Shown here in pieces: positions 3,173 through 38,833 of a stretch of 64,000 nucleotides of DNA (position 1 is its first letter; each line of letters starts with the position of its first letter). The translations under genes were made by a program, and so were the position numbers. This DNA comes from a virus, in the IMG/VR virus record IMGVR_UViG_3300045988_146036, positions 1-64,000 of that record. One strand, 5' to 3'. A model generated the notes under the pieces. It worked only from the letters and a program-made list of their open reading frames with translations, had not been told where the DNA came from and made no database searches.

Positions 3173-3658
3173 TTAGCACCCCTCCATATTAAGCTTTTTC
3201 CACTTCTTAATAATTCCCTTCAAAGGAAATACACAGTATCCCATTTTTTCCAAGGAAATAAGAATGTGTCTTTTATCTCTTAAAGCAGGTTTATCATGTA
3301 AATGTCCATGAATATTTACATCTTGCGAAAAACGCTTTAATGGTTTATGTGTAAAAATAATATTAATTCCCATATAGTCCATTGTAAATGAATCACATGC
3401 AAAGTCAAAGACTTTCATAAAAGCCTCGCAGGAATGTTTATCGTGATTTCCTCTTACAAGAATCTTTCTTCCATGCAATTTTTCAAGAACACTATAATCA
3501 TTTCGCCAAGAAATATCCCCTAAGAGAATGACAATATCTTCATCCTTTACCTGCTTATTCCAATTTCTAATAAGCTTTCGTTCATAATCTTTTGGGCGCA
3601 AACCGCTCTCAATCATCATATCATGGTTGAAGTGCGTGTCAGCTACAAGATAAATCAT
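3173..3658 (-). CDS. calcineurin-like metallophosphoesterase (second, tandem)
   Basis: Motifs ADTHFNHD...LGDI...GNHD; start abuts the stop of the upstream gene. Confidence 0.65.
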   Translation of the reverse strand: MIYLVADTHFNHDMMIESGLRPKDYERKLIRNWNKQVKDEDIVILLGDISWRNDYSVLEKLHGRKILVRGNHDKHSCEAFMKVFDFACDSFTMDYMGINIIFTHKPLKRFSQDVNIHGHLHDKPALRDKRHILISLEKMGYCVFPLKGIIKKWKKLNMEGC

Positions 3659-6230: not shown

Positions 6231-7676
6231 TTAAGACTTTTTAGCTGCATTTTTAACAGGAATTGCTCCTTTAATAGCAACATTCTTATTAACCTTTGCA
6301 TCAATGGTATTTGCGTCTGCAATAGCTTTCAAATCTACACCAGTAGCAGATTTCATGGTATCAAAAACTTGCGCCATAACAGTAGGGGTATTTCCTGCCA
6401 AAGTGCTAACATCACCATTGCCATACACTTTCATTTCCTTAATGTTGGAAAGCGGTGTTGCAATAGCCTTTGCAACTTCTGGGAGAACCTTAATAGCCAT
6501 TTCAGCCATAGCTGCCTTGCCATACTCTTTCATAGCCTCTGCTTTTTTCTGCAAAGCCTCTGCTTCTGCCAAGCCTTTTGCTTTAATAGCCTCTGCTTCT
6601 GCCAAACCTTTTAATCGAATAGCTTCTGCTTCCTTTTCAGCACTATATTTCAAAGCTTCTGCTTGTTTTTGCTGTTTAGCAAGTTCTGCCTCTGCATTTT
6701 GTTTAGTAACAAAAAGGTCTGCTTCTGCCTCTTTTTCACGGCGATACTTTTCAGCATCTGCTTGTCTGCGTACTGTTGCATCTAAGCTCTTTTCTTGTAC
6801 CTTTGCTTCCTGCTCTTGCAAAGCTACTTCTTTTTCACGCTGCGCAATTTCAGCTTCCACCATACGTGTTTTAAGAATCTTATCTTGTTCTGCTTCTTTA
6901 ATGTTGTAAGCTGCGTCTGCTTCTGCTTGCTTAATGTCTGCCTCTTGTTTAAGTTCAGACTTACGAATTGCAACTTCATTCTGTTTTTCTGCAATTTGTT
7001 TAGCACTGTTCATTTTTGCTTCATTAGCTCGTTTATCTGCTTCTGCTTGTGCAATTTGAACATCACGTTCAGCCTCTGCTTTAGCAATTTGAGCTTGCTT
7101 ACGAATTTGTGCGATATTGTCAATACCTAAATTGTTAATAGCATCACAATCATCTGTAATAGACTGAATATTGAAAGACAATACTTCAATACCAAGTTTT
7201 CCCAAATCTTCAACAGCACTGGACTGTACTTTATCAGCAAGCTTTTGGCGGTCATTTACCATTGCTTTTAATTCCATAGAACCTGCAATATCACGCAAAG
7301 AACCTTCCAAAATTTGACGTGCAGTAACTTCGATTGCATCTTCATCACGATTTAAGAAGTTGACACATGCAAGTTTAATGCTTTCAGTATCATTCTTAAT
7401 CTTTACAGTAGCAAAAGCATCCAAGTTGACGTTGATATAATCAGTTGTTGGTACAGAATCTGATGTATTAACATCAACATTTACCAAACCAAGATTAATA
7501 TAGTCAAGACGCTCCAAGAAGGGAATTTTAAAACCTGCTTTACCAATATAGATACGTGGCTCTTTAGAGAAGCCGCTTACAATACCTGCCATATCAGTAG
7601 GGATTTTAAAGTATCCCTTAGTAAAAATAATCATAAGTGCAAATAAGATAATAATTCCTGTAATAATAAGTACCAA
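6231..7676 (-). CDS. flotillin / SPFH (band-7) family membrane protein
   Basis: N-terminal TM helix, SPFH-like core (PFLERLDYINLGLVNVDVN...), and a long Ala/Glu/Lys coiled-coil with AEAEA repeats typical of flotillins; TTG start. Confidence 0.7.
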   Translation of the reverse strand: MVLIITGIIILFALMIIFTKGYFKIPTDMAGIVSGFSKEPRIYIGKAGFKIPFLERLDYINLGLVNVDVNTSDSVPTTDYINVNLDAFATVKIKNDTESIKLACVNFLNRDEDAIEVTARQILEGSLRDIAGSMELKAMVNDRQKLADKVQSSAVEDLGKLGIEVLSFNIQSITDDCDAINNLGIDNIAQIRKQAQIAKAEAERDVQIAQAEADKRANEAKMNSAKQIAEKQNEVAIRKSELKQEADIKQAEADAAYNIKEAEQDKILKTRMVEAEIAQREKEVALQEQEAKVQEKSLDATVRRQADAEKYRREKEAEADLFVTKQNAEAELAKQQKQAEALKYSAEKEAEAIRLKGLAEAEAIKAKGLAEAEALQKKAEAMKEYGKAAMAEMAIKVLPEVAKAIATPLSNIKEMKVYGNGDVSTLAGNTPTVMAQVFDTMKSATGVDLKAIADANTIDAKVNKNVAIKGAIPVKNAAKKS

Positions 7677-8769: not shown

Positions 8770-9852
8770 TTATTCTTCTTTTAGCAAAAAAGTTGGGGAA
8801 ATCGCTTTAAAGGAAATTCCCTGCTCATAATTTCTGCAAACAATACCTTCACGCTCTTGTGTATCAAGTAATACACTTTTACCACTCGCAAGATTGTTTA
8901 AGGTCTGTAAATCACTTGGCACATTGATACGCTTATAAACTACTGGCACTGTTTTAATGCGAAATTCTTTAAGAAGCTCTTCCATTTTTACTTGTGAAAC
9001 TTTAATGCCGTCAAGAATTAAATTATAAGCATAAAAATCATACCCACTAATCTTATATTTATTAGCTTGGATATTTTGCCCAATAATCTCACCTTGTAAA
9101 ACAACTTTTCTAAAGCCAAAGCAATCTTGAATCTCCTTTAAAGCCTCCTCAATCTGAAAGCGTCTTGCAATTTCCCAATAGGGCGAATTATCTTCCTTAC
9201 GTAGCCAAATATTTCTACTGCAAACCCCAAAAGTGCCGCCGTCTAAAAAGAAAGTTGAACTGCAGCCGTCGATTTTCTCTGTACAAGTTAGCGGAACACT
9301 ATCAGAACGCCATTGTTCAAGCTTATCAGTAATATTTTGCCAGCGTTCTTCATCAGTCTTGCTTGCAATGTAAGTAGGGAACTTTTCATTCTGTACATGG
9401 AATTTTGCATATAAGCGTCTAAACCAACGGAAACGCATTAAAGGCTTCCATAAGAATGTGAATCTTCCTTTTGGGGCAGCAACTGCCATGATTTTATTCT
9501 CTGCTTCAAGTTGCGGGTCAAATTTCGTAATATTCAATACTTTAGTTACATCTTCACCAACAGCGTATTCTTTATTTGGCAAGTAACTTAAAGGCAGAAT
9601 CAAACCTTGTGAAATCTGTTTGCGCAATTTAATAGTCTTAATGCGGTACTTTCTGTCTTTAAGGAACGCAAATTCTGGTCTTGCAGGGAGTACAGAATCT
9701 ACTTCAATATACACTACTTTATCGCCTTGCTGAAAGTTGTCACTCTTACTTACAACACATTCCCAACCTTTTACAGTTGCTTTTAAAATTCTATCTGCAT
9801 TTGGAATAGGCTCTAATTTATCTATAATTTCTACACTTGCTAATTTTCTCAT
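8770..9852 (-). CDS. ATP-dependent RNA/DNA ligase, Rnl5/DraRnl-like (N-terminal OB domain plus nucleotidyltransferase)
   Basis: N-terminus MRKLASVEIIDKLEPIPNADRI (OB-like as in NgrRnl/DraRnl); motif I TEKIDGCS (KxDG); motif IV EGIV; motif V FKAISPTFLLK. Confidence 0.55.
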   Translation of the reverse strand: MRKLASVEIIDKLEPIPNADRILKATVKGWECVVSKSDNFQQGDKVVYIEVDSVLPARPEFAFLKDRKYRIKTIKLRKQISQGLILPLSYLPNKEYAVGEDVTKVLNITKFDPQLEAENKIMAVAAPKGRFTFLWKPLMRFRWFRRLYAKFHVQNEKFPTYIASKTDEERWQNITDKLEQWRSDSVPLTCTEKIDGCSSTFFLDGGTFGVCSRNIWLRKEDNSPYWEIARRFQIEEALKEIQDCFGFRKVVLQGEIIGQNIQANKYKISGYDFYAYNLILDGIKVSQVKMEELLKEFRIKTVPVVYKRINVPSDLQTLNNLASGKSVLLDTQEREGIVCRNYEQGISFKAISPTFLLKEE

Positions 9853-11741
9853 TTAACTACCTCCGCTTCTACTGTTTTTTCATCGTCTGTATCTTCCATA
9901 AAAATTCGTTCTAAAATGCCACCAGATTGGGGATTCGCACCATGAACAACAGTTTGCTCAATACTTCCACCTTTAATTTTTGTTTGTGAAACCATAACTG
10001 GTCGTCCTTTTACTTCGTCTTGCAAATCTTTTAACTTAGTTAAATACCCAAAAGCATCCTGCATTGCCTGTGAAGTAGCCTTTGTAGGTGTTCCACCCAT
10101 AGCTGTTTCAAGCATAAAGGCTTTTTGAGCACGTTCTATTGCTAAATCAGCAATAGCCGTCATTCCCTGTATAACATCTTCTTGTTCCCTGGTATTAAAT
10201 CTACGGAACATTTTATCATATGCACAAATATACCCTGCTTGGTACTCTGTACAGTTTGCTGCCATTACGCATCTATCACAAGAAAGTCTAGGTAAAGCTC
10301 TTGTGGAAAGCTTTTTCTGTCGCTTAACCTTTTTGATACCTTTTAAGATATTGCCATTTTTATCATAAATTGGTTTAATACCTTGTTCTATTAAAGCTTT
10401 TTCAACATCATCTTTATCATATCCAGAAGTTAATAATGCAGGTAGAAGTTCTCCACACTCTTCCCTACTCATTTCAACCTCTAAATACTCTTTTTCTGTA
10501 ATATAGTCCTCACGTTCAAGTGCTATACGCTGCCCCTCTTCTGGATTCTGCAAATTTGACAACTCGTTTCGCATACCGTCAACGTGTTCTTTGAAAGCTT
10601 CTTGCAAAAACTTTATACACTTATCTTTTGTATTATAGTTTGCACCTGTTGCACCAAACATTGCACATAAACCTACAAGGTCGTCAAGCTCATAGTTCTT
10701 GGCTTCTTTAGGCTCGTTTAGAAAAATATAAGCATCATGTAAAATTGTTTCACCCGCTGTTTGAGGAATGTTTGTATCAATTCCTGCTAGTTCTAAGCGT
10801 TCCTGCCAATCTTGCATATCCCCTTCAAACCATGCTGCATCTGGAATAGAGTATCTAGTGTTTGAACGTGCTTCCCAATATTTTTGTGGTCGCATAACAT
10901 TTTTAACGTATTCTTCAAACTTCTTATAGCTAATGGCGTTTGCTTTTATAAGCTCATAAGGAGATTCTATTTCAAGCAACTTCTCCTTTAACCCCAACGC
11001 CTTTAGCTTTTCCATGTATTCCGTTTTCCATTGCTGCTTTTCAAGGTGTTTCATTTGCCCTGCTTCAAAGTAGGTAATTGTACCAAATTGCGCACCTGTC
11101 AAATAAGTAGTAGAATCTGCGGAAAAGAATGGATAGCTCAATAATAGTTTATTGCCTGTAATTGCAAAACCATGAATAGCAGACTTATACCTTTTAGCTA
11201 TTTGGAATAATTGTGAAATGAGATTTTCCCTTTCCCCCATATCCTCAATAGTATGCTTTATCTCCATGTACGAAAATCCAACATATGGATGCTGTTTACA
11301 AAGCTTTTCAAAATGCGATAAATCTTTATCTAAATGATAAAGATAAATAACATTTATTCCTTCTCTTTCTAATGGATAGAAATACTTTTCACGCCAACCT
11401 TCTACAATATCCTCGCCAACAATACTATCAATATCAAGTTCCACGCAGGCAAAGATATAGTCACGATACTCACGTACAAAGTTAACATACTTTACTAAAT
11501 AATCTTCCCACCATTCAATGGTCTTATTATTAAACTCTTTATCATTAAAAAAAATATAAGCACCACTATCAATTAAGACTTTCATTCCTCTATGGGACTT
11601 TAAGCGTTTTACAATTTCATCTAATCCACGTTTACGAATATACTTATAGGAAAGTAGCACATTCTTTGTTACAGAAGATGCTACTTCCCAGTTTTCTTTA
11701 GGCTCAACGCCTGATAATAAAAGCGTAAAATCACCTTTCAT
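9849..11741 (-). CDS. tRNA-guanine transglycosylase superfamily protein, DpdA-like (candidate 7-deazaguanine DNA transglycosylase) with C-terminal extension
   Basis: VLIDSGAY matches the TGT substrate-Asp motif (L/I)(T/I)DSGG(Y/F); Cys cluster SCDRCVMAANC as a candidate Zn site; adjacent to queC. 630 aa is much larger than typical DpdA. Confidence 0.45.
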   Translation of the reverse strand: MKGDFTLLLSGVEPKENWEVASSVTKNVLLSYKYIRKRGLDEIVKRLKSHRGMKVLIDSGAYIFFNDKEFNNKTIEWWEDYLVKYVNFVREYRDYIFACVELDIDSIVGEDIVEGWREKYFYPLEREGINVIYLYHLDKDLSHFEKLCKQHPYVGFSYMEIKHTIEDMGERENLISQLFQIAKRYKSAIHGFAITGNKLLLSYPFFSADSTTYLTGAQFGTITYFEAGQMKHLEKQQWKTEYMEKLKALGLKEKLLEIESPYELIKANAISYKKFEEYVKNVMRPQKYWEARSNTRYSIPDAAWFEGDMQDWQERLELAGIDTNIPQTAGETILHDAYIFLNEPKEAKNYELDDLVGLCAMFGATGANYNTKDKCIKFLQEAFKEHVDGMRNELSNLQNPEEGQRIALEREDYITEKEYLEVEMSREECGELLPALLTSGYDKDDVEKALIEQGIKPIYDKNGNILKGIKKVKRQKKLSTRALPRLSCDRCVMAANCTEYQAGYICAYDKMFRRFNTREQEDVIQGMTAIADLAIERAQKAFMLETAMGGTPTKATSQAMQDAFGYLTKLKDLQDEVKGRPVMVSQTKIKGGSIEQTVVHGANPQSGGILERIFMEDTDDEKTVEAEVVK

Positions 11742-11743
11742 TT

Positions 11744-11968
11744 TTAATTACGCCCCCAAGGTGTGATTCCTTTTCTATTTTTAGTTTTCCAAGAAGTTCT
11801 ATTCATAAATCTATAATATGGATTCGTTTGTAAATTATTTGTGTCGCCTGTTCTTCCCTGCTTAACACTTAAAAATCCACCTTTAGTCTTTTCAACACTT
11901 CTTGCTGCAATTTTAATCTGCGGAACAGAATTTTTCTTCTCCGAATTAGATTTATTTGCCAATCTCAT
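11744..11968 (-). CDS. small basic protein (74 aa)
   Basis: Lys/Arg-rich ORF between queC and the DpdA-like gene. Confidence 0.3.
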   Translation of the reverse strand: MRLANKSNSEKKNSVPQIKIAARSVEKTKGGFLSVKQGRTGDTNNLQTNPYYRFMNRTSWKTKNRKGITPWGRN

Positions 11969-12548
11969 TCCCCTCCTTCAAAAAATAACTAGGGTACCTA
12001 TGTGCTACACGCCATTTACAATTCTCACAAACACCACAAGGCTCGCCATTATCAGAAAAGTTACATGAAAAAGTATCCTCTAATTTTACACCAAGCCTGC
12101 ATCCAATCTTGAAAACATCATCTTTTGTAAGGTCTATGAAGGGTGCTAAAACTTTAACATTTGGAAATTCAATACTTAAAAATGAATTAAGAGCATCTAA
12201 CCATTTATGTGTACAGTCTGGGTATCTAGGAAAATTCTTAATAATTCCTAAATAAATATTTAAAGACTCTCCAACATAAAGCTTTGCAATAATATCCATT
12301 ACAAATAGAGTGTTTCTGTTTGGGATGTAATCTTCACCTAATAAATGTAAGTTAAAGTGTGCTAAATAATCTACATCATTATTAAACTTTTGTGAAAGAC
12401 ATTTAAACTCGTTTAAATTATATGTGCCACCTTCAACTTTAGTATAAAGCGCATGATAAACCTTTAAATCTAAATGCTCATCTTTTTTCAGATAATCATA
12501 AAGTACGGTACTATCATACCCACCACTCATACATATAATATTAGTCAT
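11952..12548 (-). CDS. queC: 7-cyano-7-deazaguanine synthase QueC
   Basis: N-terminal PP-loop ICMSGGYDST (SGGxDS) and C-terminal zinc motif CGVCENCKWR, both QueC hallmarks. Confidence 0.7.
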   Translation of the reverse strand: MTNIICMSGGYDSTVLYDYLKKDEHLDLKVYHALYTKVEGGTYNLNEFKCLSQKFNNDVDYLAHFNLHLLGEDYIPNRNTLFVMDIIAKLYVGESLNIYLGIIKNFPRYPDCTHKWLDALNSFLSIEFPNVKVLAPFIDLTKDDVFKIGCRLGVKLEDTFSCNFSDNGEPCGVCENCKWRVAHRYPSYFLKEGNEIGK

Positions 12549-14766: not shown

Positions 14767-15351
14767 CTAAAGCAATTTATGTAACTTTAAACCTGCTCTT
14801 GCATTTAAACGGTTTTTGGTTAAGAAAGTTTCTATCCTTTTAAAAATGTTTAAATCGTTTTTAAAAGGATAAAGTGTAACCATAGCAGATGTTGGATACT
14901 TCTTTAAAACCTTCTTTACATAATCAAAGTCAGAATCATCTTTTATTACGAATTTAACTTCATCATTACTATGTAATAATCTTAAATTATTTAAGATATT
15001 TTCATTGGCACAGTTTATAATTACACTATAAGCATAAGTTCTGTCATATAAACAATCTTCTAAAGGGATTCTACAAGACGTTTCCATAGTTACAATATAT
15101 GAGTATGCTAACAACTCATATACAAGTGTATAACTATCTTCCTGCAAAAGCGTTTCACCTTTTATACAAACATGCCTGTTTCCTAATTTATTTACTTTTG
15201 AGAGAATTCTATCTATTGACCAATCTGTGCCTTTGGCTAAATCAATAGGCTCTTGTATAAAAGTCGTTGCATATCCTGTGTACCTGCCCTCCCCCTGTAA
15301 AGCCGAATAAATTTCACATACTTTCACTTCGCCCAAAACCTCCCCAGTCAA
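14767..15351 (-). CDS. QueE-like (7-carboxy-7-deazaguanine synthase family) protein lacking the radical-SAM Cys triad
   Basis: EIYSALQGEGRYTG matches QueE EIFxxxQGEG; KGETLLQ matches GGEPLLQ; C-terminus KFVIKDDSDFDYVKKVLKKYP matches B. subtilis QueE VVIFNDEDLEFAKTVHKRYP; but no CxxxCxxC follows the FIQ segment. Confidence 0.5.
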   Translation of the reverse strand: MTGEVLGEVKVCEIYSALQGEGRYTGYATTFIQEPIDLAKGTDWSIDRILSKVNKLGNRHVCIKGETLLQEDSYTLVYELLAYSYIVTMETSCRIPLEDCLYDRTYAYSVIINCANENILNNLRLLHSNDEVKFVIKDDSDFDYVKKVLKKYPTSAMVTLYPFKNDLNIFKRIETFLTKNRLNARAGLKLHKLL

Positions 15352-15712
15352 GCTTAACTATCCTACCGTTTTTAGTACCAAAGTTTTCCAAGGTGCTATC
15401 CTCCAATAAAAAAGCAAGCTCATCACCTGTAACTTTATTCTTAAAATAATCTCTTACTAGATTGGCGCAATCAACACTGCTTAAAGACTTAGCTAAGGGC
15501 TGCACCCTCTCCATTACATTGCACCAACCAAAAGGGAATGAAATATATAATTTAGCTAAATGCTTGCTTTTATTCCTGTATTCCCACTCCTTTAAGTTTT
15601 GCTTACGTCCGTGGTATGGAAAACGTAAGTATGGAAATTTAATAGCAAGATTTCCTATTAAAATTACATACCTTGAACCACCACGTACAGTAGTAAAAAA
15701 ATTATCGTACAT
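15314..15712 (-). CDS. hypothetical protein (132 aa)
   Basis: ORF with GGAGG RBS. Confidence 0.35.
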   Translation of the reverse strand: MYDNFFTTVRGGSRYVILIGNLAIKFPYLRFPYHGRKQNLKEWEYRNKSKHLAKLYISFPFGWCNVMERVQPLAKSLSSVDCANLVRDYFKNKVTGDELAFLLEDSTLENFGTKNGRIVKLDWGGFGRSESM

Positions 15713-15755
15713 CTGACTCCTCCTAATAAAAATAGCCCCTATATAGGGGCTATAA

Positions 15756-16037
15756 TCAATTCAAACTTATAAAAAGTTTGATAACTGTTCTTTCTTCACC
15801 CTCTATAAAAGCGGTATCGAACCCTGGCCTTACAACCAAATCCCTACCATTAGAGGCTAAAAATCCACGAGCAACTGCAACTGCTTTAACTGCTTGACTT
15901 ACTGCTGATGCACCACAGCAATTAAGTACAACATTTGCTGCTACGGTTTCTCCGTCACCCTTTACAGTGTGTGCAATACTTCCTGCAAGCTTTTTAACAT
16001 TGCTAGTGCTGCTTACTCTGAAAATTACTTCCTTCAT
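15756..16037 (-). CDS. spoVS: stage V sporulation protein S (SpoVS) homologue
   Basis: 93 aa; AVSQAVKAVAVARGFLASNGRDLVVRPGF...EGEERTVIKL closely matches the SpoVS consensus NQAVKAVAIARGF...GEERTAIKL. Confidence 0.7.
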   Translation of the reverse strand: MKEVIFRVSSTSNVKKLAGSIAHTVKGDGETVAANVVLNCCGASAVSQAVKAVAVARGFLASNGRDLVVRPGFDTAFIEGEERTVIKLFISLN

Positions 16038-16129
16038 AACTAAAATTCCTTCCCATAATTTCTACACGTTTATACAATGATTTTTCTAAGATTATAGCCG
16101 TAATTATTCAATTATAGTTCTACTTTATT

Positions 16130-16158
16130 ATTATATCACAAAATTCTTGTTTTGTCAA
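16130..16158 (-). promoter_or_regulatory. sigma-A type promoter TTGACA-N17-TATAAT upstream of spoVS
   Basis: Minus strand reads TTGACAaaacaagaattttgtgaTATAAT; about 85-nt leader. Confidence 0.55.
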
Positions 16159-16688
16159 TACCCCCTTACTAAAAGTTTTTTATCCACAAGATTAAAAAAG
16201 TCTTTTAGTTTCAACATAATAAAGTCCTCGGACTTATATTTTCCCTTCTCTTGCGCTTGGTGCATTACTAAGCAAGGGTATTTACCGCTGATACAATCAT
16301 CTTCTGCCTGCTTAAACCAATCTTGCACCACTTTCCAACCTGCTTTCCTATTTTTAAGTTCTAAATGAAGTGCAAAATCTACATTATCATCTAAACACAC
16401 AACGTCACCACGCAATGTATTGCTTTCTAATTCCTTTTTATATCCACCACTTGAAGGTGTGCGCCCAAAAGTTAGGGCAGGGAATTGTTCCTTTAAAAAT
16501 TTTACTATCTTACGTTCATAAGTAGCACCTTTTGTTTTGGAACTTCTTCCCCGCTTACTGTACCCTAACTTCTTTTTTAGAAGCGCAATTTCCTCACTCT
16601 GCGGAGCGTGTTCTTCAAGGAAAGCAATTTTATCCCTTAATAAATCACTGTTACGCATTAAATCGCCCATTTCTACTATTATCTTCAA
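16155..16688 (-). CDS. putative PD-(D/E)xK nuclease / resolvase-like protein
   Basis: GATYERKIVKFL...GDVVCLDDNVDFALHLELKNRK fits a D...ExK nuclease core. Confidence 0.35.
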   Translation of the reverse strand: MKIIVEMGDLMRNSDLLRDKIAFLEEHAPQSEEIALLKKKLGYSKRGRSSKTKGATYERKIVKFLKEQFPALTFGRTPSSGGYKKELESNTLRGDVVCLDDNVDFALHLELKNRKAGWKVVQDWFKQAEDDCISGKYPCLVMHQAQEKGKYKSEDFIMLKLKDFFNLVDKKLLVRGY

Positions 16689-17130
16689 AATCTTTTAAAC
16701 GACGTGTAAGTTCTCTGCTTACAAGGAAAGTGCCATCATCTAAACTATCCATAATATCTTTTAAAAAGTCAAAGCGTTCTAAGGAATACTCCATAGTTGC
16801 ACGAATTTCACTCGCCTGCTCATCTTGATAAACACGCAGTTCTTTTTCTGTAACACTCATCTTTGCTGGGGCAAGTGAGAAAACTCTACATTTTTCTCTA
16901 TCATATGCGGACTTTGCTTCCCTATAAATTGCTCTAGCTTGACTTGCTAAGGTGCGCACATACATTCTCTGCTGCGTAATTGCATTTAAGTATTTGCTAA
17001 TCTCATTAGTTGGCAATTCTGTTAAATCTTTAGGAAGCTTTAAATACTCTGCATCTACATTCTGATTGTCAAAAGTGTTTACTCCTGTTTCTTTTAAAAA
17101 TTCTTTAATTCTATCTAAGTTTGTTTCCAT
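16651..17130 (-). CDS. hypothetical protein (159 aa)
   Basis: ORF with GGAGG RBS. Confidence 0.35.
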   Translation of the reverse strand: METNLDRIKEFLKETGVNTFDNQNVDAEYLKLPKDLTELPTNEISKYLNAITQQRMYVRTLASQARAIYREAKSAYDREKCRVFSLAPAKMSVTEKELRVYQDEQASEIRATMEYSLERFDFLKDIMDSLDDGTFLVSRELTRRLKDFEDNSRNGRFNA

Positions 17131-17664: not shown

Positions 17665-17932
17665 TTAAAGCACCTGCTGTAACAAATGTCCATAATACCC
17701 AAAAAACAACATTAGCAAAACCCGTGAAGAAAGAAGCTCCCCAAGCCCCAATATATATCAAACTTACAATAAAGACTAATGCACCCAATACTGTGGTCAA
17801 AACAATAATAAGAACTGCAAAAACATCTAGTAACTTTTCAATCATAATTAGCACACACCTTTCTATAATGACAACCATTGCACATAAACGTCTTTTCTGC
17901 TGCTGGGACTTTTCGCTCCCTAACAGCGTCAT
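17624..17932 (-). CDS. small integral membrane protein (102 aa)
   Basis: Two or three predicted TM helices. Confidence 0.35.
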   Translation of the reverse strand: MTLLGSEKSQQQKRRLCAMVVIIERCVLIMIEKLLDVFAVLIIVLTTVLGALVFIVSLIYIGAWGASFFTGFANVVFWVLWTFVTAGALNGISTFISKRVSN

Positions 17933-18731
17933 TTATAGCTGAGAACTTTTTAAGAGCTTTAGTAGTAGCTGCCTTATCTGTATAAGCAAACTCTTTCAAC
18001 TCTTGTGTATCCTTATTCTCATAAAGAAATATAACTTTTTTTACAGGTTTTGGGTATTTTTCTAAAAAATCAAGAGTGTTCTTAAAATCTTTAAACCTGC
18101 TATTTACCTTATCCTTTTTAAAATGCACTTTTCCGTCTAAAGAGGTAGTATCTTCCAAAAAAGAATCTAGTTTGTATAAATACTCTTGTTCTAACTCTTT
18201 GCGCTTTCCTAATAAGATTAAATTACGCATAGTATTTAAACAATACATGTAGATACTTGCTTGCATCTTGTGTTCTGGCTTTGCATCTTTAAGGCCTGCA
18301 AATCCCATAGAATTAATACTCTTAATTTCGAGCACTGCAATAGACCTATCTTTATCTAAAAGCAAGCCATCTGTTGTTCCCATAATTTGATAAGCTTTAT
18401 CATATAAAGGGGCTTCATCTGCTAAAAGAACACCACTTTGCAGAAGATAATTCTGTAAACGAATATGTGTATAAGTACCATTATCAAAGATTCGCTGTAA
18501 ACGTGGTTCGTTACTAGGAAAATCTGGTGGTAAACCTATACGACCAAAGTAGACACTTCTACTACAATAACCAACACTACTAGGACTGTTCCAACCATGC
18601 CCCCTATCAACACCTGCTTTTAAATTACGCAAAGTTTCTTCAATAGCAGGGATAAGTAACTTGTCCGCTGTATCATTGGAAATTTTATTAATATTTTTTA
18701 AGCTTCCTTTTATCTTCATCTGTACCTCCAT
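17838..18731 (-). CDS. Cas4-like / RecB-family PD-(D/E)xK exonuclease with C-terminal Cys cluster
   Basis: DKDRSIAVLEIKS (D..ExK) and C-terminal FMCNGCHYRKVC Cys cluster typical of Cas4-like Fe-S nucleases. Confidence 0.5.
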   Translation of the reverse strand: MEVQMKIKGSLKNINKISNDTADKLLIPAIEETLRNLKAGVDRGHGWNSPSSVGYCSRSVYFGRIGLPPDFPSNEPRLQRIFDNGTYTHIRLQNYLLQSGVLLADEAPLYDKAYQIMGTTDGLLLDKDRSIAVLEIKSINSMGFAGLKDAKPEHKMQASIYMYCLNTMRNLILLGKRKELEQEYLYKLDSFLEDTTSLDGKVHFKKDKVNSRFKDFKNTLDFLEKYPKPVKKVIFLYENKDTQELKEFAYTDKAATTKALKKFSAINDAVRERKVPAAEKTFMCNGCHYRKVCANYD

Positions 18732-19308
18732 CTATATAAAATTGAAAATCTGTTAACCTTATTAAACCCCAAGCATTACCATTTACATCAATTTCTCTAA
18801 AACCTTCAAATAAACCCTCAAAAATATCCTGTGTAATCTTTAAAGAGCTACTACACTTTAAAGATGTTTCCGTAATTTCTGTAAAGAAATCATAAACCCT
18901 AAAAAGTATAAAGTCACCAAGAGAACACCGAATAGCGAGTAAAGGAATCCTACCACTTTTCAATGCCTCCCCTCTAATCTTCTCTACAATCTTTGATTTT
19001 AAGATGTAGTAATTTTTCCTAGTAGCTTTGCACTCTATCTGATAAAGAGAAGTAACTACATCTGATTTTGCCATCCAAAGTGCTCCACTAGCAATCGTGG
19101 TTTTGCCATTGAGAGATTCTGCAATGAATCTCTCATGGGCTTCACTCATCTTCTTATTTTCAGTTTGTACCATCTTCGGGACTCCATAAAAGACAGAAAT
19201 GTCTGTCACCCTCGGTAACAAGGTCAAACTCTGTAACATTACAATTTGTGCAACTCTTAAACTCATCATAATATTTACAGCTTTCACACCTTGCAATAAA
19301 TTTAGCAC
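18688..19308 (-). CDS. hypothetical protein, possible PD-(D/E)xK nuclease
   Basis: SGALWMAKSDVVTSLYQIECKAT resembles a D...ExK core; the true start is probably an internal Met. Confidence 0.3.
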   Translation of the reverse strand: MLNLLQGVKAVNIMMSLRVAQIVMLQSLTLLPRVTDISVFYGVPKMVQTENKKMSEAHERFIAESLNGKTTIASGALWMAKSDVVTSLYQIECKATRKNYYILKSKIVEKIRGEALKSGRIPLLAIRCSLGDFILFRVYDFFTEITETSLKCSSSLKITQDIFEGLFEGFREIDVNGNAWGLIRLTDFQFYIDGGTDEDKRKLKKY

Positions 19309-19369: not shown

Positions 19370-20440
19370 CTATAACTTCTCAACAATCTCCATAAACAGT
19401 TCTTGGTTCTCTCTTAATTTAGCAACTACATTGTCCTGTCCTTGCCCCAACTGCTCACCATTATAATAGAACCAACCACCACGGCGCTCAATCAAGCCTT
19501 TAGACATTGCAAGAATAACTAACTCTTTGCCTGTATCAATGCTTCCTCTTGGAAGTAGTGCATCATCTACATAAAGGTCATATTCTCCGTCACTAAAAGC
19601 CTTACCTGTTTTATTTTTCTCAATCTTCCATTTAATAACCCTTCCTACGGTTCTAGCATTTACGCCAGTACCCTCACGAATAATATCACCTACACGTGTA
19701 CGAATCTCAATAGCATTGGTGAATTTTTGGCTACTACCTCCAGGTGCGTACAATGGATTACCATAAGCACCAATCTTTTCACGTAACTGATTAATTGCCA
19801 ATAAAGTAGTAGGCAATTTACCATTTCTTTCTAAGGAGTTGTTAATACTTTGAAACTTGCCATGAAAAACATTTAAAGCCTTTGCCCTAAGTCCCATCTG
19901 TACAGTGTCCTCTTGGTCTGTTTCAATCTCTTTAGTAGGTAGCATTGCTGCAATACTATCAATGACAATAAATTCAACCCCAGCACGTTGGAGAGCACAA
20001 GCAAGGTCTAAAGCCTGTTCCATACCCTCTGGCTGTACAAAGATTAATCTGTCATTATCAATGCCGTGGACTTCGCCCCAGTCTGGGGAATAACTACCAC
20101 ATTCAAGCTGAATAAGTGCTGCGGTTAAAGGAGTGTCACCGTCGTCTGCAACAACCTCATAAGCATCTACACCTTCCCCAACCAATTTTTTGCGCAGATT
20201 CTGCACAGCAGCAATAGCTTTATAAGCAAGTAAGCTTTTACCACTGCTTTCCTGTCCAGCAAGTGTGATATAACGCCCACTCGGAAGTCCACCACCCAAT
20301 GCGTCATTTAAACCAACACTGCCTAATGGAATTTTAAAATTCATATCTTCTCTAATATTTCGTCCTAATCTTATTGCATTTGTACCAAACTTCTTATTAA
20401 TATCTTTAACTAATTTATCAATTTCTACCACTATTTTCAC
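19370..20440 (-). CDS. recA: RecA/UvsX-family recombinase
   Basis: LPSGRYITLAGQESSGKSLLAY Walker A in a RecA-like context (RecA has GPESSGKT). Confidence 0.7.
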   Translation of the reverse strand: MKIVVEIDKLVKDINKKFGTNAIRLGRNIREDMNFKIPLGSVGLNDALGGGLPSGRYITLAGQESSGKSLLAYKAIAAVQNLRKKLVGEGVDAYEVVADDGDTPLTAALIQLECGSYSPDWGEVHGIDNDRLIFVQPEGMEQALDLACALQRAGVEFIVIDSIAAMLPTKEIETDQEDTVQMGLRAKALNVFHGKFQSINNSLERNGKLPTTLLAINQLREKIGAYGNPLYAPGGSSQKFTNAIEIRTRVGDIIREGTGVNARTVGRVIKWKIEKNKTGKAFSDGEYDLYVDDALLPRGSIDTGKELVILAMSKGLIERRGGWFYYNGEQLGQGQDNVVAKLRENQELFMEIVEKL

Positions 20441-32033: not shown

Positions 32034-32462
32034 TTACCATCTTGATGTATAACCTCTTGTATCTAAGTGAATCCAATCACCATAATATCCAATACCTAGC
32101 TTATCTTTTAAGCCCCAAGCATCCGCAGCTACCAGCACTGTATCCGCTAATGCTGTATCTGTATCATCTTGTCCTGCAATATGTATGTCAGCAGCACAGC
32201 CTTGTGTATGCAAACTTCCTTCTGCACCACCAACTAAGGCATTAATATATTTTGTACGATAACCGCTTTTATATCCTGCATTTGTAGTATTAACTACCCA
32301 ATTTGGATTCCAGTCCCTTAACATATCCAATATCTTAAAGAGATTTGCAGTTCTCTCATCATCTGTACAAAGTCTACCATCTTCTGTCCAAGCAAATGGA
32401 TTTTCACTGCGTTGTAAGCAGTCCCATTCATTTACTGTCCAATGTTTACTTTTATACATCAC
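32034..32462 (-). CDS. endolysin, peptidase M15 (D-Ala-D-Ala carboxypeptidase/VanY-like) family
   Basis: SGYRTKYINALVGGAEGSLHTQGCAADI matches the M15 zinc-binding signature SGYR...S.H..G.A.D. Confidence 0.6.
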   Translation of the reverse strand: MMYKSKHWTVNEWDCLQRSENPFAWTEDGRLCTDDERTANLFKILDMLRDWNPNWVVNTTNAGYKSGYRTKYINALVGGAEGSLHTQGCAADIHIAGQDDTDTALADTVLVAADAWGLKDKLGIGYYGDWIHLDTRGYTSRW

Positions 32463-33060: not shown

Positions 33061-33486
33061 CTACGCAATTTTTACAGCGGTGAAAGAAGTGCTTGTTACC
33101 GTTCCTGCAGCTGTCAACTGTACTTGTAGTGAAGCTACATTATTGATAGCTTTGCAAGAAGGTAGAACCGTAATCAAAGTGGTAAAACTTGCAGGGAATG
33201 TAGTAGCTACCACACCTGTCGCAGTAGCACTAGCACCAGGGACTGCTACACCGTTCTTAACCAGTTGCAGGGAAATATCCCCTGCCGCAGTAGGTGTAAC
33301 ATTTGCATTAACAGTGACTAAGTAAGTTCCTGCTTTACGTAAAGTAACTGTATTACTGCCTGCTGTAAATAAAATTCCTTGATTGCAACAACTGTTGCAA
33401 CCACTTACAGCTTTTGTGTCATATACTAAATACCCATCAGCTACCACTGTCTGAGTGACAGAGTTAGTAGCATTTAAATAAGCCAT
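33061..33486 (-). CDS. BclA C-terminal-domain-like (C1q/TNF-like) protein
   Basis: Thr/Val/Ala/Asn-rich beta-rich sequence (VTVNANVTPTAAGDISLQLVKNG...) resembling the Bacillus collagen-like protein BclA C-terminal domain. Confidence 0.4.
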   Translation of the reverse strand: MAYLNATNSVTQTVVADGYLVYDTKAVSGCNSCCNQGILFTAGSNTVTLRKAGTYLVTVNANVTPTAAGDISLQLVKNGVAVPGASATATGVVATTFPASFTTLITVLPSCKAINNVASLQVQLTAAGTVTSTSFTAVKIA

Positions 33487-37609: not shown

Positions 37610-38833
37610 TTACATTCCACCTTCCATTCTCCAAAACTCATCAGCACATTCCTGCACCGCGCTAAAAAACTCCCTTATATAATCGCATTGTACAAATTCT
37701 TCTTTGTTTTCTTTCTTATAGGCTATTGGACAAATTGACCTGCATAAAGGTAGACATTCACATTCTGCGCAATTTCGTGGCAATAACTTTAACCACTCCA
37801 TTTCATGTGCTTTTAATATATCTGAATAATCATCTTTAATATTTGCAACCACTTTATTATCATTGTGGCATCTTATTATATTACCTGCAAAATCTATAGA
37901 TAAAGAGATACGTCCAGGTGCGCAAGGTGGAAATGGGGAAAGCATAAAACTTTCTTTAGAGAAGTAAGTCCCTCTTCTAAGTTTAGTTTCAAACCACCTA
38001 TGTACATTTGAATCCCTTGTTTCTTTATAATATTCAAATAAATCTTTTACTGCTTTTCTTACTTCGCCCTTCTCAAAAGCGTATAAATCTTTTGGTATAT
38101 CCCATAGTACATTTATAAAACCTAGAGTTACCTCAGTATTGGGGAATTTTGACTCCAAGTATTTAAAAGCAGTTACCATATCACAATTTAAGGCATTGTA
38201 TACCCCATTTACCGTTCTTTTTTCTGCCAACAAAAAAGCTTCTATATTTCTCTCTAGCGGCATGGCGTTTCTTGCAGCTAGAGGGTTGGGTGCATCATAA
38301 CTCATAATTACCCATATATTATGTTTGTTACAAAAGTCTACAATGGAATTTGAAAGTAATAGACCATTGGTGAAAATGCGATAAGAAATATTTCTCATAC
38401 CCATTTTTTCAAACTCTTCTATAAGTTTCTTTATTGTAGTCCAATAAAGTAAAGGTTCACCACCCCAAAAATAGAGCCTACCTCCACCTGCTTTATCCCA
38501 TTTTACTATAAAGTCTAGTACATCCTTGCTTAACTCAGTAGTGGGAAAAGCAACATCACATTTAATAGGAGTTTGTGTACAATGTCTGCAAGACATATTA
38601 CATGCACTGCCTAGCATCAGATAAAGTGCTTTTACACCTTCCGTGGATACCGAATCCCCTTCACAGTGAATAACATCCCCATTAACAAATTTGTCACCCT
38701 CTTGAATGTCGACCCCTGTAATATCCACATAATCTCCATCCCCAACTAAATCTTTAAACTCTTTTAATGTATTATTTGTTATAAATTTTGCCACCAATAC
38801 ATCATCTATTAATTTTCCAATTTGTAATACCAT
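37610..38833 (-). CDS. radical SAM / SPASM-domain maturase
   Basis: CNMSCRHC (CxxxCxxC) near the N-terminal third; C-terminal SPASM-type cluster NCAECECLPLCRSICP. Confidence 0.6.
   Translation of the reverse strand: MVLQIGKLIDDVLVAKFITNNTLKEFKDLVGDGDYVDITGVDIQEGDKFVNGDVIHCEGDSVSTEGVKALYLMLGSACNMSCRHCTQTPIKCDVAFPTTELSKDVLDFIVKWDKAGGGRLYFWGGEPLLYWTTIKKLIEEFEKMGMRNISYRIFTNGLLLSNSIVDFCNKHNIWVIMSYDAPNPLAARNAMPLERNIEAFLLAEKRTVNGVYNALNCDMVTAFKYLESKFPNTEVTLGFINVLWDIPKDLYAFEKGEVRKAVKDLFEYYKETRDSNVHRWFETKLRRGTYFSKESFMLSPFPPCAPGRISLSIDFAGNIIRCHNDNKVVANIKDDYSDILKAHEMEWLKLLPRNCAECECLPLCRSICPIAYKKENKEEFVQCDYIREFFSAVQECADEFWRMEGGM

Follow-up and report, generated by a model that had tools for sequence, protein, structure and literature searches.

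In a 64,000-nucleotide (nt) stretch of viral DNA (positions 1 to 64,000 of the IMG/VR record IMGVR_UViG_3300045988_146036; hereafter, the window), a gene for a 93-amino-acid (aa) SpoVS-like protein stands at the end of a block of recombination and DNA-processing genes, and this block, in whole or in part, is also found in related phages, including phages of non-sporulating hosts. Our preferred but tentative reading is that the protein is a nucleic-acid-binding Alba-fold accessory of the block. The gene would then be a long-standing part of a lineage of large siphoviruses (like phages BCD7, BRock and BS162P1) and not a recent capture from a host, and its product would bind nucleic acid and aid recombination-dependent replication or the processing of branched DNA, together with the structure-specific nuclease encoded upstream. 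A first-pass annotation, made from the sequence alone, had recognized a SpoVS homologue with its own consensus promoter, suggested that a phage copy could manipulate host sporulation and taken the gene as support for a spore-forming host. The homology was borne out; however, the gene probably does not serve to hijack spore formation, because the conserved recombination block is also present in related phages of non-sporulating bacteria, and it cannot be used to infer a spore-forming host, because Bacteroides and Streptomyces phages of the lineage carry SpoVS-like genes. The single gene call is ordinary, and the comparative pattern is the part worth following.

The SpoVS family and the Alba fold

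The window protein (N-terminus MKEVIFRVSS, C-terminus ISLN) is a member of the SpoVS family by sequence and by fold. It scores 85.6 bits with the Pfam profile PF04232 (SpoVS), above the cut-off of 24 (E=1.9e-24), and the match spans positions 2-82 of the 83 in the profile, which places it in this family; PHROG 35646 ('sporulation protein') matches it with E=3e-23, and NCBIfam has no model for it. The two motifs quoted by the first-pass annotation, SQAVKAVAVARGF and GEERTVIKL, are both found in the 93-aa open reading frame (ORF). The AlphaFold2 (AF2) model, with a predicted local distance difference test score (pLDDT) of 91.9, is a single domain of beta-alpha-beta-alpha-beta-beta topology, the Alba/IF3-C type. 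Foldseek returned the B. subtilis SpoVS chain 9a7h_B as the best match of this model in the PDB (42% identity, template modelling (TM) score 0.81), together with Thermus thermophilus SpoVS (2ek0 and 2eh1; TM 0.81-0.83, 41-42% identity); ranked after SpoVS were Alba (2z7c, 1h0x, 1nfj) and the Alba-like RNase P/MRP subunits Pop6/7 (E 4e-5 to 1e-3, TM 0.5-0.67).

With the cellular SpoVS of B. subtilis and the SpoVS1 and SpoVS2 of B. thuringiensis, the window protein has in common the PF04232 family, a similar size, the fold and nearly the same alpha-2 motif. This helix reads SQAVKAVAVARG in the window protein, in agreement with the SpoVS motif (N/S)QAVKA(V/I)A(V/I)ARG, and residues Q48, A49, K51, A52, A54 and A56 are invariant in the aligned phage and cellular sequences. 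The near-identity in motif that had been claimed thus holds for the helix, but the protein is not a host-like copy: it is about 40-45% identical to Bacillus SpoVS (42% to 9a7h_B), whereas the Bacillus cellular proteins are 72-92% identical among themselves (PMC8510167). The B. subtilis query used for BLAST and tree identities was entered by hand, and it is supported by the 42% identity to 9a7h_B and by a 94%-identical IMG/VR copy (L054). A genome scan for SpoVS relatives found no prophage of the window clade, only cellular SpoVS, and the closest of the 32 cellular loci (L010-L041, from GTDB genomes) was at most 49% identical to the window protein. In the alignment, the window clade is marked by a 5-residue insertion (KGDGxTxA) and by a CCG motif in place of AIG, both lacking in BCD7 and the cellular proteins. 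Among solved structures, the best sequence match is the T. thermophilus SpoVS-related protein (2EH1/2EK0; E=2.7e-14), which is likewise without the insertion; it is a cellular protein from a non-sporulator, so the SpoVS family is not tied to spores, and the family is also known from other non-sporulating phyla (PMC2732212).

The Alba fold is strongly tied to DNA or RNA binding (PMC2732212; PMC11621453), HHpred places SpoVS in the Alba superfamily (PMC11621453), and we infer from the fold that the window protein binds nucleic acid. Alba (Sso10b), Pop6/Pop7 and Rpp20/Rpp25 have the same fold, but they are 12-23% identical to the window protein, which lies outside the Alba Pfam family, and the strongly basic DNA-binding face of Alba is not in evidence in it. 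A modest precedent for an association of chromatin-type proteins with resolvases comes from Alba/Sso10b and other chromatin proteins, which co-purified with the Holliday junction resolvase of the archaeal virus SIRV2, possibly through DNA (PMC3157427). The window protein is mildly basic (net charge +3, isoelectric point (pI) 9.2), and its relatives span pI 5.5-9.7; an argument for DNA binding from a basic surface was set aside as weak, as charges vary so widely among relatives.

The recombination block and its phage lineage

The block runs from a RecA/UvsX gene through a PHROG-2002 resolvase-like gene, a Cas4-like exonuclease gene, the family 'c1' (weakly UvsY-like) and a nuclease gene to the SpoVS-like gene (Table 1). 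We found it, complete or partial (with c1 or the nuclease gene, or both, beside the SpoVS-like gene), in the window, in metagenomic relatives (71-76% identity between the SpoVS-like proteins), in BCD7, BRock and BS162P1, in environmental IMG/VR contigs and in a contig binned as Saccharibacteria. Of all neighbours, c1 accompanies the SpoVS-like genes of related phages most constantly, and its homologues adjoin them in BCD7, BS162P1, the L099 type, L049, L053, L054 and L124 (L numbers denote compared loci). In the window, the SpoVS-like gene directly follows the nuclease gene; a Foldseek search with the model of this nuclease gave nothing significant.

At least 530 IMG/VR contigs encode a relative of the SpoVS-like protein, and neighbours were counted in the best 80 of these loci. 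The gene immediately upstream (-1) encodes a predicted structure-specific nuclease in 48 of the 80: RuvC-like (PHROG 159) in 38, PDDEXK_15/PHROG 244 in 8 and endonuclease VII (PF02945) in 2. The PDDEXK_15 type is directly upstream in the window clade, L049, L113 and L119-121, the RuvC-like type in the L099 type and as gp52 in BRock, and endonuclease VII in L080 and L104; in L037 endonuclease VII lies about 340 nt upstream. Judged from these family assignments, the upstream position is fixed, while the nucleases that occupy it appear to be of unrelated folds (Hjc-like PD-(D/E)XK, RuvC-like and endonuclease VII). From this position we infer a partnership between the SpoVS-like protein and the nuclease. 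We found no link between SpoVS and resolvases or recombination in the literature, and no description of a recombination-block context with interchangeable nucleases in what is searchable, and it is this context that makes the gene interesting. The Saccharibacteria locus (L037; CAYUUT010000003.1, 115 kb, binned Candidatus Saccharibacteria) carries the PHROG-2002 resolvase-like gene, the Cas4-like exonuclease, endonuclease VII and the SpoVS-like gene, and is probably a phage or prophage contig within the bin.

The closest proteins, 71-76% identical in alignments, are encoded on metagenomic contigs of 45-107 kb in the order PolA, RecA, Cas4-like, two unknowns, PDDEXK_15, SpoVS, QueD, unknown, QueE, Mom-like, ThyX, QueC and DpdA; a 99%-identical copy is found on a further, 99-kb IMG/VR contig, which probably represents the same phage as the window. 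To delimit the lineage we took the phage records that match the large terminase subunit (TerL) of the window over at least 90% of its length (n=8). The closest is BCD7 (45% identity, E 4e-138), followed by five Streptomyces phages (BRock, LuckySocke, Alone3, GiJojo and pSt2308; 31-32%), Bacteroides phage BS162P1 (31%) and the uncultured gut phage MT835482 (31%). All eight carry a SpoVS-like gene, and the host genera of the cultured ones are Bacillus, Streptomyces and Bacteroides. BCD7 gp031, BRock gp51 and BS162P1 gene 00084 (PHROG 35646) share family, block and terminase lineage with the window gene and are 40-50% identical to it; across the phage lineage, pairwise identities of SpoVS are 32-52%, and those to the canonical protein 34-47%. 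In BCD7 the order is Cas4-like, c1, a small gene, PDDEXK_15 ('RusA-like'), two small genes, SpoVS and QueD-QueE-QueC-FolE-DpdA; like the window, BCD7 has a similar hairpin terminator directly after spoVS, a GRDLVVRPGF segment and a C-terminal SLN, and unlike it, BCD7 lacks the insertion, the CC motif and a dedicated spoVS promoter, the last because the gene overlaps the preceding one. In BRock, gp52 ('RuvC-like Holliday junction resolvase') immediately precedes gp51 ('sporulation protein'). BS162P1 has Cas4-like, c1, small genes, an HNH endonuclease and the SpoVS-like gene, with QueE further along. The upstream nuclease thus differs, being RuvC-like in BRock, HNH in BS162P1 and PDDEXK_15 in the window. 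About 45 nt before the SpoVS-like start of BS162P1 (L123, 4930-4990) is a sequence TAtcTTTG, which resembles TAnnTTTG, the -7 promoter element of Bacteroides; with only one short match, chance may account for it.

These hosts bear directly on the suggestion that the protein manipulates sporulation or cell division. Bacteroides makes no spores and Streptomyces no endospores, and yet their phages carry SpoVS-like genes, in the same block where checked. According to this suggestion, the protein would mimic or antagonize host SpoVS, for example through mixed dimers via the conserved alpha-2 helix, and, through mistimed expression from a vegetative promoter, it would alter septation, autolysis or the decision to sporulate in a spore-forming host. 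The protein is indeed a true family member with an almost unchanged alpha-2 motif, and mutant phenotypes fit: loss of spoVS delays polar septa, blocks stage V and alters pro-sigE and spoIIE expression (PMC8510167), and it raises sigma-D-directed expression and autolysis (PMC2732212). Within Firmicutes, SpoVS is confined to spore-formers (PMC2732212), and BCD7, the closest relative in culture, has the spore-former B. cereus as its host. However, identity to Bacillus SpoVS is far below that among cellular copies, and the gene has kept one genomic position while TerL diverged to 31-45%, unlike a sporadic host-derived gene; its promoter is of the phage's general type and is missing in the close relative L125/L126. 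As for a moron, a layout with promoter and terminator of its own round a single gene is present in the window, in favour of manipulation, but is not universal (L125, BCD7), and instead of sporadic occurrence and a close host gene we found the gene in eight of eight TerL-related records, with fixed synteny where inspected and no close cellular homologue. In lineage members with Firmicute hosts the protein may manipulate sporulation, but nothing that we found speaks for this, and we consider it unlikely for the window gene.

Phage-borne SpoVS is in itself not new. Searching cultured phages with tblastn, we found annotated spoVS in Bacillus phage BCD7, Lysinibacillus phages LysYB1/LysYB2 and Stenotrophomonas phage TS-12, and viromic studies of soil and of a marine oxygen-minimum zone have listed spoVS as a viral auxiliary metabolic gene (AMG) for sporulation, an interpretation that agrees with manipulation (PMC6172770, PMC8940887). 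Viral spoVS is routinely used in this way to infer spore-forming hosts or manipulation of dormancy (PMC6172770, PMC8940887), and the present case argues that such inference is unsafe, because throughout a phage lineage the gene travels with recombination enzymes, including in Bacteroides and Streptomyces phages. A second group of viral genes exists: in about 31 other loci of the best 80 from IMG/VR the protein is of the canonical type, with 61-94% identity to Bacillus SpoVS in local BLAST, and the contexts vary (beside an integrase, beside a terminase). These genes (the TS-12 type, L048, L055, L058-63, L062, L078) are phage-borne like the window gene, and they look like sporadic host-derived genes and fit the idea of sporulation manipulation better than the window gene does. 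TS-12 SpoVS (L007) belongs to the canonical Firmicute type, with about 71-73% identity to the B. subtilis protein, and has a basic tail; at 91 aa it has the length of B. cereus-group SpoVS2, it forms one group with near-identical IMG/VR copies (L048, L055, L058-L063), and it is an odd find where the phage host is Gram-negative. Directly upstream of spoVS in L048 and L055 is an integrase gene. One apparent close homologue, P0012 (94 aa, from a 1781-bp ENA contig), was excluded as a chimera with a canonical Firmicute C-terminus; over its first ~54 residues it differs from the window protein by a single substitution (T11I), and it arose either by misassembly or by true recombination between phage-type and host-type genes.

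Cellular spoVS loci and possible partners

Whereas the window gene follows a phage nuclease gene, the cellular gene often follows ymdB. Among the 32 cellular loci, ymdB is directly upstream of spoVS in 15, rny-ymdB in 10 and recA-recX-rny-ymdB in 5-6; the order recA-recX-rny-(x)-ymdB-spoVS occurs in Peptococcaceae and Chloroflexota, and recA immediately adjoins spoVS in one metagenome-assembled genome of Acidimicrobiia (L011). The window gene has none of the marks of a host orthologue that we looked for, namely a sigma-H promoter, conservation of 72-92% and the (rny-)ymdB-spoVS neighbourhood. In cells and phages alike, however, the SpoVS gene comes after a phosphoesterase or nuclease gene and near a RecA-type recombinase. 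In addition, PDB entry 9a7h, an integrative model, has B. subtilis SpoVS in complex with YunD, which hints that cellular SpoVS works through a protein partner; a literature search on this YunD-SpoVS model gave nothing usable.

We speculate, with considerably less confidence than for the accessory role in the phage block, that SpoVS-family proteins are small Alba-fold partner subunits of nucleic-acid phosphodiesterases, encoded just downstream of the enzyme. If so, the bacterial enzyme would be YmdB, with RNase Y and RecA/RecX nearby, the phage enzymes would be the interchangeable Holliday junction resolvases, the 'sporulation' phenotype would be a downstream effect, and the spoVS 'sporulation AMGs' of viromes would mostly be recombination or DNA-processing factors. 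The pattern would also provide a lead on the role of SpoVS, a highly conserved bacterial protein: the binding of branched DNA or RNA, in partnership with an upstream phosphoesterase or nuclease.

The same cellular loci suggest an RNA-directed role inherited from a cellular RNase Y/YmdB/SpoVS pathway, whereby the phage protein, bound to RNA or to a phosphoesterase partner, would change how mRNA is processed in the infected cell. The cellular linkage just described (15 and 10 of the 32 loci), the RNA-binding RNase P/MRP subunits of the Alba superfamily among the structural matches, the pairing with YunD in 9a7h, and an RNA ligase and a small metallophosphoesterase encoded by the phage itself are all in line with it. 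No RNA enzyme is found among the phage neighbours, though, where the conserved genes all encode DNA recombination proteins, and the metallophosphoesterase gene is about 12 kb away; we regard this role as improbable, the least likely of those considered here.

Several observations weigh against the role as an accessory of the recombination block. Of the associations of the cellular gene, that with ymdB and RNase Y is the tightest, and it points to RNA over DNA. Two small genes lie between nuclease and spoVS in BCD7, the gene directly upstream is c1 and not the nuclease in L124, a gene without assigned function in L054, and a gene annotated as a homing endonuclease in BS162P1. Adjacency to the nuclease could be inherited gene order in which the resolvase slot was swapped in place, with no functional coupling. 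Neighbour-joining trees, built with no bootstraps, put the BCD7/window and environmental groups on separate long branches and did not settle whether the phage genes make up a single clade. The proteins of some lineage members are not basic but neutral or acidic (L099 type, pI 6.7; L104, pI 5.5). To our knowledge, no biochemical activity has been described for any SpoVS protein, so the argument for nucleic-acid binding is one from the fold.

Transcription signals and other features of the window

The SpoVS-like gene is preceded by a sigma-A-type promoter that agrees with the consensus at 12 of 12 positions and has a TG-extended -10, and the TGA stop codon of the upstream nuclease gene falls within its -35 hexamer. 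The first-pass annotation had singled out this perfect promoter. The site itself is confirmed, but it is not special to the SpoVS-like gene, because the window has 13 promoters of identical consensus, all on the coding (minus) strand and 12 of the 13 with the TG extension; some of them precede structural and packaging genes. About 0.05 perfect N17 sites would be expected by chance per 64 kb on both strands (an estimate from base composition), and the window has 19 sites that agree at 11 or all 12 positions, versus 4.2 +/- 3.0 in shuffles. The promoter is thus far from chance, and it is one of the phage's standard host-sigma-A promoters. Unmodified host sigma-A polymerase apparently serves the whole of the phage genome. 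We propose that host sigma-A RNA polymerase would transcribe the SpoVS-like gene from its own promoter, that read-through from the upstream recombination genes probably also contributes, and that transcription is predicted to stop at the intrinsic-terminator-like hairpin right past the gene, a signal that the first-pass annotation did not mention. Cellular spoVS, in contrast, depends on sigma-H in both B. subtilis and B. thuringiensis (PMC8510167); across the window, a sigma-H-like pattern was matched once, which is at chance level, at a place remote from the SpoVS-like gene, and not at all near it.

A long leader had also been noted, rightly: with the transcription start placed by inference about 7 nt past the -10 element, the leader of the SpoVS-like gene is the longest among those of the 13 promoters. 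A structured or riboswitch-like leader was rejected, as it folds no better than shuffles (z=+0.89) and Rfam gave no family above threshold for it, only sub-threshold matches that cover the terminator. The 5' leader of B. subtilis spoVS is also long, at 124 nt (PMC2965217), and no sequence or structural link between the two leaders was found. The promoter is kept in L001 (perfect), L002-L005 (TGGACA-N17-TATAAT) and L008, the terminator in the same six relatives, L001 differing in both arms of the stem, and the leader is partly conserved with L002-L005 and L125. In the close relatives L125/L126, promoter and terminator are both absent, and QueD begins 7 nt past the SpoVS stop. Within the clade a stand-alone SpoVS transcription unit is therefore frequent and not essential. 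In L008, the 99%-identical relative, the change TTACGG->TTATGG in the leader (about 930-960, corresponding to about 16085 in the window) creates an in-frame upstream ATG, and the 114-aa gene call P0001 is due to this base change.

These signals also bear on a further alternative, namely that the protein is a small DNA-binding regulator or nucleoid-type protein that acts independently of the recombination enzymes and times transcription or coats the phage DNA, which is possibly 7-deazaguanine-modified. All 13 promoters, including those before structural genes, follow the host sigma-A pattern, so some factor must set the timing, and a strong promoter with a terminator would suit an abundant small protein. 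Rigden and Galperin predicted SpoVS to be a DNA-binding transcriptional regulator, from the Alba fold and from mutant effects on sigma-K and sigma-D genes (PMC2732212). In the window clade, BCD7 and BS162P1, the gene is located at the boundary between recombination and 7-deazaguanine genes. A precedent would be TF1 of Bacillus phage SPO1, a phage chromatin-type protein that prefers modified phage DNA. The positive charge is modest, however, with some relatives acidic; around the SpoVS-like gene of BRock and of the L099-type contigs no 7-deazaguanine genes were seen, and those of the window are partly decayed. A repeated operator-like motif was not found, and no search aimed at one was made. 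We judge such a regulator to be about as doubtful as the manipulation of sporulation.

Table 1. Features of the window discussed in the text
Feature	Position	Strand	Remarks
SpoVS-like coding sequence	15756..16037	minus	stop codon included; 93 aa; ATG start
Sigma-A-type promoter	16130..16158	minus	TTGACA 16158..16153, N17, TATAAT 16135..16130; 12/12 matches; TG extended -10
Inferred 5' leader	16038..16123	minus	~86 nt
Purine-rich ribosome-binding site GGGAAGGAA	about 16046-16054	minus	within leader
Intrinsic-terminator-like hairpin	15753..15732	minus	hairpin plus T-run 15724..15753; 9-bp stem, 5 GC pairs; starts 3 nt past SpoVS-like stop
13 perfect promoters	363, 2243, 4439, 8419, 8763, 14759, 16158, 25549, 29770, 31999, 51995, 60581, 63103	minus	TTGACA-N17-TATAAT
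PD-(D/E)XK nuclease, upstream neighbour	16155..16688	minus	Pfam PDDEXK_15; PHROG 244 'RusA-like Holliday junction resolvase'
Family c1, weakly UvsY-like	16651..17130	minus	PHROG 231 E=2.7e-4; PF11056 UvsY E=2.5e-3, below cut-off
Cas4-like PD-(D/E)XK exonuclease	17838..18731	minus	PHROG 1706 E=5e-35; homologues in BCD7, BS162P1, L099, L037
Second resolvase-like gene	18688..19308	minus	PHROG 2002 'Holliday junction resolvase'; also in L099, L037
RecA-type recombinase, head of block	19370..20440	minus	PF00154 E=1e-38; same position in relatives
Downstream neighbour	15314..15712	minus	PHROG 4301
QueE-like	14767-15351	minus	194 aa; TTG start
QueC-like	11952-12548	minus	partial
DpdA-like	9849-11741	minus	
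RNA ligase	8770-9852	minus	PHA02142 OB domain
SPFH/flotillin-like protein	6231-7676	minus	481 aa
Small metallophosphoesterase	3173-3658		~12 kb from SpoVS-like gene
M15 peptidase, small	32034-32462	minus	sole lysin candidate; no wall-binding domain
BclA_C-like domain	33061-33486	minus	below cut-off
Radical-SAM protein	37610-38833	minus	among tail genes

The remaining genes identify the carrier. On the minus strand the window encodes a large terminase, a portal, a major head protein, a tape measure and a J-like tail protein, so the gene is phage-borne, as had been stated, and further a family-A DNA polymerase, a helicase, a ligase, a DpdA-like transglycosylase, RecA, a primase, a DnaB-like helicase, an RNA ligase and QueC-like and QueE-like proteins. 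The window is from a tailed phage distantly related to Bacillus phage BCD7. No tRNAs were found in the window, no integrase or repressor among the ~50 window proteins scanned, and no match to the SpoVS locus in a DNA-level search of cultured phages. Low GC content (35.5%) and extended -10 promoters are generally taken as hints of a Bacillota host, and together with the kinship to BCD7 they suggest one here; nothing shows that it sporulates. QueD follows spoVS in L001-L005 and L125 and is absent from that place in the window, L008 and L042. The QueE-like ORF of the window is without the radical-SAM motif CxxxCxxC, and its QueE PHROG match is limited to residues 54-193, while a DpdA-like gene and a partial QueC-like gene persist; the 7-deazaguanine DNA-modification module of the window may be decayed or rewired.

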